In this document: piece by piece, positions 20,061 to 63,770 of the stretch
Layout of the letters: the number at the start of each line of letters is the position of its first letter
Numbering within the stretch: the stretch's first letter is position 1
Program-made: the position numbers and the translations under genes
The notes under the pieces: generated by a model
What the model saw: the letters and a program-made list of their open reading frames with translations, nothing else
Database searches by the model: none
Told to the model about the DNA's origin: nothing
Origin: Candidatus Latescibacterota bacterium
GTDB taxonomy: Bacteria; Latescibacterota; UBA2968
Length of the DNA stretch: 64,000 nt
Reading direction: 5' to 3'
NCBI GenBank assembly: GCA_965116885.1
Contig: OZ220741.1
Location: 1,536,001 to 1,600,000, forward strand

Positions 20061-20825
20061 ATGTATTTATCGCCCAAAGAAATTGACAAATTGATGCTTC
20101 ACAACGCGGGTTTTCTCGCGCAGAAGCGGTATGCTCGGGGCTTGCGTCTCAATTACCCGGAATCTATATCGCTTATCGCGGCACAGCTTCTCGAGTTTAT
20201 TCGCGATGGCGAGTCCGTTGCCACGCTTATGGATAAGGGCAAGCAGTTGCTGGGTACGGAAGATGTTTTGCCCGGTGTTCCGGATATGGTTCACGAGGTG
20301 CAGGTGGAGGGTACGTTTCCCGATGGGACGAAGCTCGTGACGGTTCATCATCCTATTTGCCGCGCAGAAGGCGATTCTGAACTCGCGTTGTACGGTTCGG
20401 GGCTTACGCGCGTTCGCTCGCCCTGGTCGCCGGATAATGCGGTTTCTGATACGCCGGGTGCCGGAGCTACGGCTGCTGATCCAATTGCGCTCAATGCGGA
20501 CCGGGAGACGATTTCTCTTTCTGTGACCAATACCGGAGATCGCCCGATACAGGTGGGTTCGCATTATACATTTTTTGAAGTTAATCCCGCGCTTTCGTTT
20601 GATCGCGAGAAAGCTTATGGCTTCCGTCTCGATATTCCATCTGGTACTGCCGTGCGTTTTGAACCGGGTGAGAGCAGGACGGTTGATCTCGTCGCTATTG
20701 CCGGGAACCGCACGGTCTATGGGGGGAATGGCCTTATTTCGGGGCAGATCGATGAGAATAAGGCAGAGGCTTTGCAACGGGCGGGAGATGGTGGATTTAA
20801 GGGGGTTCCAAATGTCTCAGATTGA
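20061..20825 (+). CDS. ureAB: Urease fused gamma/beta subunit
   Basis: Gamma ([27 protein letters not shown]) fused to beta ([28 protein letters not shown]). Confidence 0.93.
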
Positions 20826-22515
20826 TCGAATTGCTTATGCCAGTATGTACGGTCCCACAACGGGAGACCGCGTTCAATTGGGCGATACCCATCTCGTCGT
20901 TGAGGTGGAAAATGATTACACGATTTACGGCGATGAATGCAAATTTGGCGGGGGTAAGGTGCTCCGCGACGGCATGGGTCAGGCTACGGGTGTGTCGCAG
21001 GATAGGGCGCTGGATCTCGTTATTACCAATACGCTTGTGGTTGATTCTACGGGGATATACAAAGCGGATGTTGGGATTAAAGACGGGCGTATCGCCGGTA
21101 TTGGCAAAGCGGGTAATCCCGATATTATGTCGGGTGTTGATCCCGATCTCATCGTGGGGGTTACGACCGAGGTTATTGCGGGTGAAGGTCATATGCTCAC
21201 GGCTGGTGCGCTCGATGTGCATGTCCATTTTATTTGTCCTCAGCAAGTTGAGGAGGCGATTGCTTCGGGTATTACGACTATGCTGGGTGGTGGTACGGGT
21301 CCGGCGACGGGGACCAATGCTACGACCTGCACGCCGGGGGCGCACCACATTCGCATGATGCTGGAGTCGAGTGATGCTTTTCCCCTCAATTTTGGATTTT
21401 TGGGCAAGGGCAATTCCTCGCTTCCGCAAGGGCTTGTTGAGCAGATTGAGGGTGGGGCTTGTGGTCTCAAGCTCCACGAGGACTGGGGTACGACGCCTGC
21501 GGCTATTGATGCCTGTCTTTCGGTTGCCGATGAATACGATGTTCAGGTGGCGATTCATACGGATACGCTCAATGAGTCGGGTTTTGTGGAGCAGAGTTGT
21601 GCAGCTTTTAAGGGGCGCACGATTCATACGTATCACACCGAGGGCGCGGGTGGGGGACACGCGCCGGATATTATGCGTCTTTGCGGCGAGGCGAATGTTT
21701 TGCCTTCATCTACGAATCCCACGCGGCCTTTTACGGCGAATACGATTGACGAGCATCTGGATATGCTTATGGTGTGTCATCATCTGGATAAAAATATACC
21801 CGAGGATGTGGCTTTTGCCGAGAGTCGCATTCGGCAGGAGACGATTGCGGCAGAAGATATTTTGCACGATATGGGGGCGCTGTCGATTATTGCATCGGAT
21901 AGTCAGGCGATGGGGCGCGTGGGGGAGGTTGTTTGTCGTACATGGCAGACTGCCCATAAGATGCGCGAGCAGCGGGGTGCACTGCGCGGCGATCGGGGGC
22001 ATGATAATGGGCGCGTGAAGCGGTATATTGCCAAATATACGATTAATCCCGCGACGGCTCATGGTTTGAGCGATTATATCGGTTCGGTTGAGGCGGGCAA
22101 GCTCGCGGATCTGGTGCTCTGGAAGCCATCTTTTTTTGGGGCAAAACCCGAGATGGTGATTAAGGGGGGTATAATCGCGTATTCGCAGATGGGCGATCCA
22201 AATGCTTCGATTCCCACGCCGCAACCCGTGTATCCGCGTCCTATGTTCGGCGCTTATGGCAATGCCGTGGGTTCTACGTCGCTGGCTTTTGTCTCCCGTG
22301 CTTCGCTGGATACTGTTGCGTCTTATGATCTGTCCAAAGGCGTTGTTGCGGTGTCCAATTGTCGGGATATTGGGAAGAAGGATATGAAGCTCAACGACTT
22401 TATTCCCGATATTCATATTGATCCGGAGACTTATAGCGTTACGGTCGATGGCGAGTTGCTCACCTGTGAGGCGGCAGAGAAACTGCCGCTGGCGCAGCTT
22501 TATAATTTGTTTTGA
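20812..22515 (+). CDS. ureC: Urease alpha subunit
   Basis: [58 protein letters not shown]. Confidence 0.97.
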
Positions 22516-22517
22516 TT

Positions 22518-23186
22518 ATGCTACTCGATCTTCTCACACTTGCCGATAGCAATTTCCCTACGGGTGGATACGCATTTTCCAATGGGCTGGAGGCCACCAA
22601 ACAAATGGGGTTGTTGCGTTCTTCCAATGATCTGGATGCGTATCTTCAAACGGTGATTCACGCGACGGCAAGGGGTGAGATTCCGTTTATTAATACGTGT
22701 TTTAAAGGTGATCCGGTTCCCGCTAATTTGACGGATATGCTGCTCACTTACGACGCGATGCTGACGGCACCGGCGATTGTCCGCGGCAGTGAGGTGCAGG
22801 GTTGCAATTTGTTGCGGCTGATGCGCGATTTGTATTTTTCCGATGCGATGACGCGGTTGTACAAAATCTTACTTTCGCAACCTGTGCCGGCTCATTATAC
22901 GATTGTTTTTGGTACGACGTTTCGGATTGCGGGTCTTAAACGCGGGCATACGTGTCGGATTTTTATGTATCAGTTTTTGCGCGATCAGATCAGTGCGGCT
23001 GTTCGCCTGGGGCAGATTGGTCCTCTCGAAGCCGCGCGGTTGCAAAAACGCCATCACAAGACGGCGATTAGAGCTATGACTTCTGTCGCGCAGGCAGATT
23101 ATACCTGTGCGACGCGCTGTGCGCCCCAATGGGATATTGCACAGGGTATGCACGAGTATCTGTATTCGCGGTTGTTTCAGAGTTAG
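22518..23186 (+). CDS. ureF: Urease accessory protein UreF
   Basis: [36 protein letters not shown]-terminus. Confidence 0.9.
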
Positions 23187-23196
23187 AGGATTTGCT

Positions 23197-23907
23197 ATGC
23201 ACGATCATAATCACGACCACGATCATTCTCACGAGCCTTTTGAATCTCCGGGGGACTTTGCTTTGCGCGAGTCGGTCCTTTGTGATCGCGATTTTTCACA
23301 GCGGGCGTTTACCGTGGGGGTTGGCGGTCCGGTGGGTACGGGGAAGACGGCGCTTGTTCGCGTGTTGTGCGAAGCCCTGCGCGATCGGTTTAGTCTCGGT
23401 GTGGTTACGAATGATATTTTTACGCGCGAGGATGCCGAATTTCTTTTGCGTCACAAGGCGCTTGAGGCCGATCGCATTATTGGGGTTGAGACGGGCGGAT
23501 GCCCGCATGCAGCTATTCGCGAGGATATTTCGCTCAATTTGAATGCGCTCGAGGATTTGATGATCCGCTTTGCGTGCGATATCGATTTGCTTTTTGTGGA
23601 GAGTGGCGGCGATAATCTGGCGGCGCATTTTAGCAAGGAGCTTGTCGATTACGCTATTTATGTGATTGATGTCTCTGCTGGGGACAAGATTCCCCGAAAA
23701 GGGGGTCCGGGGATTACGCAATCGGATTTGCTGGTTATTAATAAGACTGATCTGGCCGGTCTGGTTGGCGCAGATCTGGGGGTTATGGGGCGAGATGCAA
23801 AGAAGATGCGCGGCGATGGTCCCACGCTTTTTTCCTGTCTCAAACACGGGTCGGGGCTTGACGAGATTATTGAGTATGTTCTCCGAGCGCGCAGGTCTAT
23901 TTTGTGA
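23197..23907 (+). CDS. ureG: Urease accessory GTPase UreG with His-rich N-terminus
   Basis: [42 protein letters not shown]. Confidence 0.95.
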
Positions 23908-23939
23908 ATTAAAAATTAAAAATTGAGAATTAACAATTG
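23906..23939 (+). repeat. Tandem heptamer repeat (RAATTAA x4-5)
   Basis: GAATTAA AAATTAA AAATTGA GAATTAA CAATTG fills the ureG-ureD spacer. Confidence 0.75.
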
Positions 23940-24761
23940 CTTCCTTCCCAAATTGAAGTGACCCGCAATGGCTCCCGTTCTGTTCTGACTGCCTGTCGCT
24001 CAGTCGCGCCTTTGAAGTTGCTCAATCCCGCCGCACAGGGCGATTATTGCGCTGTTGTGCTTTCCAGTTATGGAGGCGGTATGGTGGAGGGGGATGCGAC
24101 GACGCTGTGTGTGCGTTGTGGTGAGGGGGCAGCTCTTTATCTGGGGACTCAGGCGTTTACCAAAGTTTATAAGAGTCCCCGTGGTATTCCGTGTAAACAA
24201 ATAATTAACGGTGAGGTGGAAGCCGGGGGCCTTGCCGTTGTTTTGCCCGATCCCATTGTTCCATACTCGCGAAGTGTTTTTGAGCAGGCGCAGACGTGGC
24301 ATCTGGGGACTGACGCATGTCTGGTGCTCGCCGATGGTCATACGGCTGGACGCATGGCTTTTGGGGAGTGTTTTGGGTACACGAGTTACAGGTCTGATAT
24401 TACTGTGCATACGGCTGAACGCCCGATTCTGATGGAGCGCTATTATTCCGAGCCGGGGGTGTTGTCGCCGGTACATACGGGTGCTTTTGGGGCTTATGGT
24501 GTTGTTTTTAATATTTTTGTTGCGGGTAATTCCGCGCGTTTTAGCTGTTTGGTTGAAAGTCTTTCCCAATCGCTCACTCCTTTGTTGAAACCCTCGCAGG
24601 ATTCTTTGTTGCTTTCCTTTGCTTCCCCCAGGCCCGATCTTTTTGTGATACGATCCCTCGCGCAAAATGTCGAGTGTCTTCATCCTCTCTATAAAGCTCT
24701 CCGCAATGCAATCGCCCATCCCAATGTCCTCGGTGCAGATCCGCTGGCGCGAAAGTATTGA
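23937..24761 (+). CDS. ureD: Urease accessory protein UreD
   Basis: PLKLL, YGGGMVEGD, TQAFTKVYK, LPDPIVPY, GR.A.GE.F, RKY C-terminus; operon position. Confidence 0.88.
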   Translation: MLPSQIEVTRNGSRSVLTACRSVAPLKLLNPAAQGDYCAVVLSSYGGGMVEGDATTLCVRCGEGAALYLGTQAFTKVYKSPRGIPCKQIINGEVEAGGLAVVLPDPIVPYSRSVFEQAQTWHLGTDACLVLADGHTAGRMAFGECFGYTSYRSDITVHTAERPILMERYYSEPGVLSPVHTGAFGAYGVVFNIFVAGNSARFSCLVESLSQSLTPLLKPSQDSLLLSFASPRPDLFVIRSLAQNVECLHPLYKALRNAIAHPNVLGADPLARKY

Positions 24762-26879: not shown

Positions 26880-26919
26880 GACCTACCCCCTAACCCCCTT
26901 CCTACAAGGAAGGGGGAAC
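26880..26919 (+). repeat. C-tail plus hairpin repeat (left flank of DUF559 gene)
   Basis: GACCTACCCCCTAA + CCCCCTTCCT-ACA-AGGAAGGGGG; 39/40 identical to the reverse complement of 63731-63770. Confidence 0.9.
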
Positions 26920-26975
26920 TGTGATCGGTTGATCAACTGTTAGTATTGAAAGATTAGCTGAATACATTTCGTTTT

Positions 26976-27353
26976 ATGAAAAAATCCAAACGAAATATTG
27001 TGATTGGTCAACGCGTTACGCCTGAGAAAGTAAACCTGTCGCGAAGTTTGCGAACTCAGATGACAGCAGAAGAGAAACGGCTCTGGCAACGGTTACGTGC
27101 GAATCGGCTTGATGGCTTTCACTTTCGACGGCAGCAAATTATTGATGGTTTTATTGTCGATTTCTACTGTCATAAAGCTGGCTTGGTAATAGAAGTTGAT
27201 GGCGAAGTTCATAAAGATCAGATCGCTTATGATGCACAACGAGATGAGATTCTCAAAGCGCGCGGATTACAAATTTTACGTATTCCAAATGCTGAAGTCC
27301 GCAACAATTTAGATGGCGTTCTCGAATCCATCAGAGCTTATATTAACACTTAA
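26976..27353 (+). CDS. DUF559 family (Vsr-like PD-(D/E)XK) endonuclease
   Basis: LRTQMTAEEKRLWQRLR, FRRQQII, IVDFYC, IEVDGEVH, RD..L...G..ILRI.N. Confidence 0.92.
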   Translation: MKKSKRNIVIGQRVTPEKVNLSRSLRTQMTAEEKRLWQRLRANRLDGFHFRRQQIIDGFIVDFYCHKAGLVIEVDGEVHKDQIAYDAQRDEILKARGLQILRIPNAEVRNNLDGVLESIRAYINT

Positions 27354-27380
27354 TTTCACCTCCTTCATTTCTCGATTTCT

Positions 27381-27422
27381 CTCCCCCTCTCCTCTCAGGA
27401 GAGGGGGCCGGGGGGAGAGGTC
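27381..27422 (-). repeat. C-tail plus hairpin repeat (right flank of DUF559 gene, inverted)
   Basis: Reverse complement GACCTCTCCCCCCGG + CCCCCTCTCCT-GAG-AGGAGAGGGGG; same architecture as the left flank. Confidence 0.85.
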
Positions 27423-63686: not shown

Positions 63687-63770
63687 CACCCCTCCCCCGG
63701 CCCCTCCCCGATACGGGGAGGGGAGACCTGGTTCCCCCTTCCTCGTAGGAAGGGGGTTAGGGGGTAGGTC
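63687..63770. repeat. Gene-less inverted doublet of the DUF559-flanking hairpin repeats
   Basis: CACCCCTCCCCCGG + CCCCTCCCCG-ATA-CGGGGAGGGG, short spacer, then an inverted copy 39/40 identical to 26880-26919. Confidence 0.9.

Follow-up and report, generated by a model that had tools for sequence, protein, structure and literature searches.

The BoxC/PIT/TM repeats were already known in the 1990s, yet neither their origin, nor a partner protein, nor a cause of the instability near them has been reported (PMC4666352). They consist of three consecutive blocks that can fold as a G/C-rich, purine-motif intrastrand triplex, with stems of 6-15 nt and loops of 1-6 nt; the E. coli elements, TMECO, have a consensus of 37 nt. 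The loop is TTA in type A and CCG in type B, and an inverted pair always joins an A with a B (PMC4666352). Holder et al. (2015) describe high variability around these sites and give no mechanism for it. Their article text reports neither a mobility gene of TM elements nor any effect in vivo, does not mention ycjD or DUF559, and states that the purine-motif triplex cannot form in RNA (PMC4666352).

Two described systems have a gene that lies between repeats of its own. Chenal et al. (2025) report Ssn, a 94-aa GIY-YIG nuclease whose gene is flanked by hairpins and which cuts single-stranded DNA at those repeats; the article text proposes a domesticated element for Ssn (PMC11893778). The RAYT/TnpA-REP systems (REP, REPIN, BIME, REPtrons) also have a repeat-flanked gene, gene-less inverted doublets and tandem mosaic arrays by the gene. 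Here we describe a locus that shares traits with both.

The window, by which we mean the whole stretch of 64,000 nucleotides that was analysed, comes from a genome of 5.56 Mb in one contig (G000). Several of the public runs containing the stretch carry the label sponge metagenome. The genome has one full DUF559 gene (26976..27353, plus strand, 125 aa), which is YcjD/NGO0050-like with a Vsr/EDxHD fold. It lies in a cassette of 543 bp (26880..27422, plus strand) made up of a triplex unit, a leader, the gene and an inverted triplex unit. Outside the cassette, the upstream host gene encodes a WelO5-like oxygenase (PF22814; 26045..26878, plus strand) and the downstream one a dehydrogenase of the Ldh_2 family (PF02615; 27447..28448, plus strand); both are syntenic in congeners. 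The initial annotation of this DNA had pointed to a complete, AT-richer DUF559 gene between two metabolic genes, and this is what we find: PF04480 is matched at full length, and the GC content of the ORF is 41.5%, against 54.7% and 56.8% in its neighbours and 51.1% in the genome. The inverted flanking elements of one design that it had seen are there as well, each with a tail, a linker and a hairpin of 10 or 11 bp with a 3-nt loop.

The left unit (26880..26916, plus strand) has a TTA linker and is type A-like. Its C-strand runs from a GACC tag and tail (26880-26890) through TAA to a stem (26894-26903), a loop and the second half of the stem (26907-26916). On the plus strand GACCT stands at 26880, the tail covers 26881-26890 and the hairpin has 10 bp and a 3-nt loop; the G-rich triplex strand is the minus strand. 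The right unit (27383..27422, minus strand) is inverted, has a CCG linker and is type B-like. Here an 11-bp stem with a 3-nt loop (27383-27393 with 27397-27407) is followed by CCG (27408-27410) and the third strand (27411-27421), the cassette ends at 27422, and the G-rich triplex strand is plus. No outer TIR was found on the cassette. A search of the locus gave no terminator-like site and promoter matches at chance level only, and Rfam gave no family at gathering level (two matches, both chance-level). RNA-library contigs from two studies span the cassette, although contigs of this kind show neither strand nor level and are no proof of transcription. Elsewhere in the window there is a gene-less inverted doublet of ~83 bp (63688..63770, no strand assigned) from the repeat family of the cassette flanks. 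Furthermore, a urease-like gene cluster, read off translations, lies at 20575-24761, upstream of the catabolic region.

By design the cassette flanks are BoxC/PIT/TM intrastrand-triplex units and more than plain hairpins: the C-tail mirrors the purine stem. A mirror check matched 10/10 triads in the left unit and 11/11 in the right, and both units have the published block structure, with loops of 3 nt. As in the described elements (PMC4666352), there is a C-rich tail, a 3-nt linker and a G/C hairpin; a TTA type (left) is paired with a CCG type (right) in inverted orientation; and the units are intergenic and strain-variable, with dispersed intergenic copies in the genome. What sets the window apart is the ACCT-ended subtype and the nuclease gene that stands between the A and B units. 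Aligned with the BoxC copy between fabI and ycjD, a window unit has the same design, with stem and tail diverged.

The annotation had observed that the stem sequences differ while pairing is kept. The pairing stands, and stem covariation is found, but the notion of a plain hairpin does not hold, since the tail is a third strand. The triad match averages 0.875 over 231 distinct units taken from DUF559 flanks, compared with 0.763 after stems were exchanged among units (at most 0.782 in 1000 swaps; the units share descent, so the swap figure is no probability) and 0.649 with shuffled tails. Tail length and pattern also track the A-tract of the stem. Stem and tail covary three ways in these units, and therefore the conserved thing is the three-block structure, not merely a hairpin. 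From this we infer that the G-rich strand of the window units would form a triplex. ViennaRNA, which models the hairpin alone, gives z-scores of -4.3 and -3.9 for the left unit and only -1.9 for the right.

A regular expression for the tail-plus-hairpin motif, whose spread through the genome the annotation had left to be counted, matches 43 times in the genome, and three base shuffles gave 0 matches each; the motif is therefore not chance. In total there are 45 units at 28 sites, mostly gene-less inverted doublets of ~85 bp, and both end types of the cassette are genome-wide subtypes, not private to it. Unit ends begin (G/A)ACC(T/C), and there is no conservation farther out. Phage records gave 3 matches only. 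We considered origin-proximal clustering of the repeats (26/28 sites) as a specific trait and rejected it, since it is common to three other families of this genome (GTAG 154/231, CGTC 17/19 and a third family 29/44). Every intergenic repeat family tested in this genome is over-represented in the half of the chromosome nearest the origin. CGTC-type hairpins are present at 19 sites; no free-standing Ssn-like gene was found in the genome with the query used, GIY-YIG matches lying only in frames of 464 and 619 aa.

DUF559 is the sole Pfam domain of the window protein (PF04480, E 1.3e-36, model positions 5-108 of 109, 125.2 bits against a cut-off of 20.6), and the PDB entry for NGO0050 (3HRL) is matched at E 5.5e-19. 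With 82 bits the protein falls below the cut-off of the NCBIfam equivalog PRK09767 (218 bits) and therefore belongs to a different subfamily from YcjD. Its closest named relatives are from Candidatus Latescibacterota, and PADLOC gives two weak partial matches, to restriction-like proteins. An AlphaFold model (pLDDT 88) has its best fold match in NGO0050 (Z 15.7, rmsd 0.8, 91 aligned), ahead of I-Bth0305I (Z 11.6, rmsd 2.0, 91 aligned) and Vsr (Z 10.2, rmsd 1.8, 96 aligned); Foldseek agrees on the top two. Next come RAP-type domains (RAP/FASTK and mitoribosomal Vsr-like domains, Z 7.7-9.2), then Tn7 TnsA at Z 6.7, which is within the range that the fold-search tool calls common.

The catalytic positions tell a similar story. 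Q53, E73 and D75 are invariant (100%) in 132 rows, and E33, D62, H79, D86 and R89 are conserved at 97-99% (D62, H79 and D86 at 98%). An HMM alignment puts D62 on D196 and D86 on D222 of I-Bth0305I, with H79 adjoining H213. Relative to the copy in G008, a congener with an intact cassette, dN is 0.039 and dS 0.16 (dN/dS ~0.24), and six other comparisons give 0.13-0.25. With a Vsr-type fold, an intact and conserved active site and a dN/dS that speaks of purifying selection, the gene probably encodes an active nuclease of hydrolytic chemistry, and neither a separate DNA-binding domain nor a strand-transfer centre is predicted. Neither an HUH Y1 transposase domain (PF01797) nor a tyrosine centre was found in the window protein, nor a DDE domain by Pfam; the suggestion of a PD-(D/E)XK rather than an HUH protein was correct. 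Fold and aligned catalytic positions are shared with Vsr, with EDxHD homing endonucleases such as I-Bth0305I and with NGO0050 (3HRL) (PMC2677866, PMC3239194). However, the window gene is free-standing and intergenic and comes without an N-terminal DNA-binding domain, intron or intein, and no methyltransferase adjoins it. NGO0050 and YcjD are themselves uncharacterised.

The pairing of gene and repeat extends well beyond this genome. We pooled 149 DUF559 loci, of which 17 were dropped as duplicates. The remaining 132 span Latescibacterota, Cyanobacteria, Chloroflexota, Planctomycetota, Thermodesulfobacteriota, Proteobacteria, Deinococcus and others; 10 of 34 plasmid and phage DUF559 matches were included in the pool. 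A hairpin lies within 260 bp at 126 of the 132 distinct loci, on both sides at 91 and not at all at 6, in a sample that is non-random, with 78 rows from the window's own clade. On the downstream side 104/132 DUF559 loci are flanked, compared with 11/146 control ORF 3' ends, and the expected enrichment of such flanks beside DUF559 genes is thus borne out. Among 41 related genomes, 20 of 21 strong DUF559 matches examined are flanked, against none of 9 weak DUF559-like domains of large proteins. A GTDB scan (78 loci from the best 80 of 368) found a unit within 250 bp in 70/78, compared with 13 of 400 distant windows, a mostly coding control that the ORF-end control supersedes. For example, BoxC units adjoin the DUF559 gene ycjD of E. 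coli K-12, and hairpin flanks are present at an NGO0050-like locus.

Furthermore, the type of repeat follows the type of enzyme. The ACCT-ended subtype of the window, with CCCCCTTCCT/CCCCCTCTCCT stems, accompanies one protein clade in at least seven phyla, and the subtypes found with different protein clades include the ACCT type, the E. coli BoxC type and a CCCCCTTT type. When subtype labels are placed on a quick protein tree of 132 rows, 27 changes are needed, against 57 after shuffling; with the dominant clade thinned, a careful tree of 60 rows gives 10 against 24.3 (10 unlabelled rows uncounted). The subtype patterns and labels were defined after the loci had been seen, and co-inheritance alone would also cluster labels. 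That said, some single genomes hold several DUF559 clades, each with its own subtype (G028, G036, G041). Orientation varies: only 45/91 loci have their outermost units inverted in the manner of the window cassette, and all orientations occur.

The surroundings of these genes are varied. Several cassette copies occur within single genomes (G029, G039), in tandem in G029. Long BIME-like tandem arrays of unit, spacer and unit adjoin DUF559 genes at several loci (L007, L008/L030, L012, L031, L078, L080). In two cases cassette and hairpins are read through in frame (L002:319-2559 and L212:1369-3318), the hosts being an HsdS-like restriction subunit and a methylase-like gene, named from translation; many other DUF559 matches sit in open frames of 400-1800 aa. 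At three alphaproteobacterial loci (L236, L239, L243) the flanks are double-hairpin elements, which we take to resemble CIR/RIME repeats. Families of the CIR/RIME type may be part of the DUF559-repeat system.

Presence/absence polymorphism with an empty site, another expectation of the annotation, is plain at the window locus. Among 20 congeners, a survey that leaves out G010, the cassette site is empty in 14, intact in 2 (G008 being one), internally deleted in 1 (G014) and occupied by unrelated inserts in 3. The empty alleles have 33-59 bp of intergenic sequence, and 11/14 begin with TAGAGGT, which corresponds to the last bases of the right unit (the AGAGGT end motif). This comparison found no target duplication at the empty site. 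The deepest branches of the congener tree are empty, and hence the empty state is probably ancestral. That the three carriers form a clade is rejected on the downstream gene (p-AU 0.004) and not on the upstream gene (0.127). The deletion in G014 starts in the loop of the left hairpin; its remnant differs from the window cassette at ~2/95 bases (3' part), while the flanking genes are ~93% identical. This greater closeness of the remnant than of its flanks hints at allelic transfer of the cassette involving G014. In contigs of 3/4 metagenomes filled and empty forms occur together, possibly in different species. Counting G010 (L052) along with G009, G015 and G018 (L038, L039, L051), four congeners have unrelated inserts of 0.4-1.6 kb at the cassette site, and for this reason the intergenic site is an insertion hot spot.

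Insertion junctions could not be read as cleanly. At six sites of the window's genome, compared across 20 orthologous stretches, none of the junctions in the alignments listed was precise, being blurred by deletions and other repeats, and orthologues of the G010 sites showed no precise junction or target duplication, with gaps of hundreds of bases. A comparable exchange is seen in E. coli, where the fabI-ycjD-sapF stretch is present over at least 80% of its length in 3343 of 5426 genomes. There a 658-bp block with ycjD and BoxC (L001:1664-2321) is replaced as a unit by the eef operon (L273; one alternative genome inspected), and in that one genome no BoxC match was found in the eef-bearing fabI-sapF allele. 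In this species the fabI-sapF site can be filled either by the ycjD-plus-BoxC block or by the eefRABCD efflux operon; gene swap at the eef site has been described (PMC12817139).

The initial annotation proposed to test whether repeat abundance tracks the gene. It does so within the genus, where four gene-bearing genomes have 12, 20, 88 and 496 pattern matches and 17 genomes without the gene have 0-6. In the sister family (f2) it holds weakly: repeats are found in 16/16 genomes, and the gene-linked difference has a one-sided p of 0.10. In the phylum of G044 (121 genomes) a BoxC-type pattern occurs in 23/32 gene-positive and 16/89 gene-negative genomes, and in 151 Cyanobacteria in 7/8 genomes with the cognate clade and 13/143 without. 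Repeat presence is therefore associated with gene presence in three genome samples, although kin genomes are not independent and the abundance p-values overstate significance. For copy number the relation fails in the Cyanobacteria, with the four highest counts (36, 25, 20 and 20) in genomes where no cognate-clade gene was found.

These cyanobacterial exceptions can be explained by carriage, since 16/19 copies inspected from four gene-negative genomes are enclosed in a MITE with its own TIRs. In the window's genome, outer TIRs are found on 6/18 doublets, compared with 0.2% of random sites. We had considered 251-bp internally deleted cassette derivatives of the sister family to be non-autonomous copies moved by their GACC ends, and this was discarded because 13 of 15 sit in a larger MITE. 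That MITE, of ~400 bp, carries the leader, first codons and gene end of the cassette (L175-L193) and occurs in four genomes of three genera (G025, G026, G029, G039). A second, ~135-bp family in the window's genome has AT-rich TIRs (G000:C1:246171-246304, L058, and sites 328445, 562681, 754075 and 1458752), and its cargo repeats differ by site, the triplex doublet among them. This genome has one DDE_Tnp_1 gene, and repeats of several unrelated families gather in its intergenic regions. The IS families behind the TIRs of these various MITEs may be IS5-, IS630- and IS1380-like. The dispersed arrays of G010 have spacer sequence in common with the arrays beside its DUF559 gene, and no outer TIR is evident in 12 clusters. 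The claim that DUF559 is the trans-acting mobiliser of the repeats thus fails to account for the many dispersed copies that lie inside MITEs with their own TIRs.

How, then, does the cassette compare with described systems? Like Ssn/NTS/SRM, it has a small single-domain nuclease gene, oriented hairpin flanks and dispersed copies, and in both systems enzyme variants are paired with repeat variants (PMC11893778). Linkage for Ssn is 71% on one side and 42% on both, compared with 95% and 69% for DUF559, whose sample is non-random (PMC11893778). However, Ssn is a GIY-YIG protein (cd10448) and the window protein has the Vsr/EDxHD PD-(D/E)XK fold; an NTS is a CGTC-tagged hairpin and the window repeat a three-part triplex motif; and cleavage, which is shown for Ssn, is a prediction for DUF559. 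The three traits of RAYT systems listed above recur here too, but without an HUH/Y1 domain or a GTAG tag, the flanks starting (G/A)ACC(T/C). The only Y1 transposase gene of the window's genome is 31 kb away from the nearest unit and lacks such flanks. DDE-moved MITEs are similar in being short and non-autonomous, and many dispersed doublets ride in them, yet they are vehicles of the repeat bounded by their own TIRs, and the window cassette has none. In contrast to classical IS and MITE elements, it also has no DDE, no perfect TIRs (its ends are diverged subtypes) and no target duplication. The DUF559 cassette would work like Ssn-NTS, looks like a REPtron and is a member of neither. The annotation took RAYT as its model; with a hydrolytic Vsr-type site and no HUH or tyrosine centre, Ssn/NTS fits better and is, by analogy, the closer working precedent.

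We consider it rather probable that the locus is a polymorphic DUF559 cassette between inverted, predicted-triplex BoxC repeats, whose product is a putative site-specific nuclease that recognises and nicks the repeats in an Ssn-like manner. Whenever the G-rich strand becomes single-stranded (in replication, in transcription or in incoming DNA), it would fold into the hairpin plus third strand; the enzyme would recognise this folded strand and nick at or near the unit. Host recombination and repair could then copy the unit, amplify it into tandem BIME-like arrays or delete it, and could also bring the cassette into empty alleles by allele conversion. On this model the enzyme would be a nickase, selfish or domesticated, and would not transfer strands as a transposase does; gene-less doublets, once made, would spread further as passengers of ordinary MITEs. 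That the enzyme cuts its own repeats is likely because the gene-repeat pairing recurs across many phyla. However, linkage and clade matching are also expected if gene and flanks are simply inherited together, repeats remain where the gene is missing (in 16/89 genomes and in the four richest Cyanobacteria), 6/132 loci have no flanking hairpin, the orientation seen in the window holds at 45/91 loci, and Holder et al. report neither an in vivo effect nor a mobility gene for TM elements in their article text (PMC4666352). A bolder proposal, which we regard as possible and no better than doubtful, is that DUF559/YcjD proteins are the first nucleases to read an intramolecular DNA triplex, with a clade-specific code. 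Nicking of the two inverted ends would make the cassette home into empty alleles without an intron and insert in frame into genes, and it would be the origin, so far missing, of BoxC repeats and of the instability measured near them.

Other readings account for parts of the same evidence. The gene might be passive cargo, captured between recombinogenic BoxC repeats, with a protein that acts on another substrate (in repair, defence or toxicity) while MITEs and host recombination spread the repeats. Outer TIRs on 6/18 doublets, 13/15 derivatives and 16/19 cyanobacterial copies agree with this, as do the unrelated repeat families that gather between genes in the window's genome and the weak PADLOC matches to restriction-like proteins. 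Cargo leaves unexplained the flanks that 126/132 loci from deep clades retain within 260 bp, and the clade's own subtype kept in distant phyla and within one genome, the unflanked fused domains (0/9) and the lack of an outer TIR on the window cassette itself also speak against it; we hold it to be rather unlikely. A true REP-like transposase, which would excise units or the cassette and insert them at new sites like RAYT or the TnpA of IS200/IS605 but with PD-(D/E)XK chemistry, strikes us as very unlikely. Strand transfer needs a tyrosine, serine or DDE centre, and a 125-aa Vsr-type hydrolase has none. The defined (G/A)ACC ends with no conservation beyond them, the gene-less doublets and internally deleted derivatives that keep the cassette ends, the several copies in single genomes (G029, G039) and the AGAGGT motif already present at 11/14 empty alleles, like a target or a scar, are what one would look for in a transposon; even so, neither the six doublet sites nor G010 yielded a target duplication or a precise junction, the derivative copies mostly travel inside MITEs, and the distant match to Tn7 TnsA (Z 6.7) has a score within the common range. 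Equally improbable in our view is a partner at the RNA level, in which the protein would bind or cut the hairpin after transcription (RNA is the target of Vsr-like RAP domains) and the flanks would be autoregulatory or stabilising RNA elements. RAP/FASTK and mitoribosomal domains do follow in the fold ranking (Z 7.7-9.2), the cassette is spanned by RNA-library contigs of two studies, and cassettes often lie in frame inside genes. Nevertheless, the closest folds are DNA nucleases, units are found in all orientations, and the covariation fits a purine-motif triplex (G.G-C, A/T.A-T), which according to the article text of Holder et al. is impossible in RNA (PMC4666352).

The repeat family (BoxC/PIT/TM) and the protein family (DUF559) are each already known. 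Full-text searches of mainly open article text returned no paper that links the two, although supplementary tables, those of PMC4666352 on genes beside TMECO and those of PMC11893778, could list ycjD or DUF559. Examined directly here were the triplex covariation, the 20-genome empty-site series, the matching of clade and subtype and the caveat of MITE passengers, which means that repeat copy number alone cannot identify a mobiliser. The DUF559 cassette system is real, and the activity of its enzyme is putative. If the favoured reading of a repeat-nicking nuclease is true, there would be a second family of small repeat-specific nucleases beside Ssn, with an unrelated fold; a non-B triplex structure would apparently be what it recognises, and nature would offer many pairs of enzyme and site. 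The conserved nucleases YcjD and NGO0050 have no assigned substrate, and the pairing with BoxC makes repeat and enzyme alike open to a direct and cheap test.
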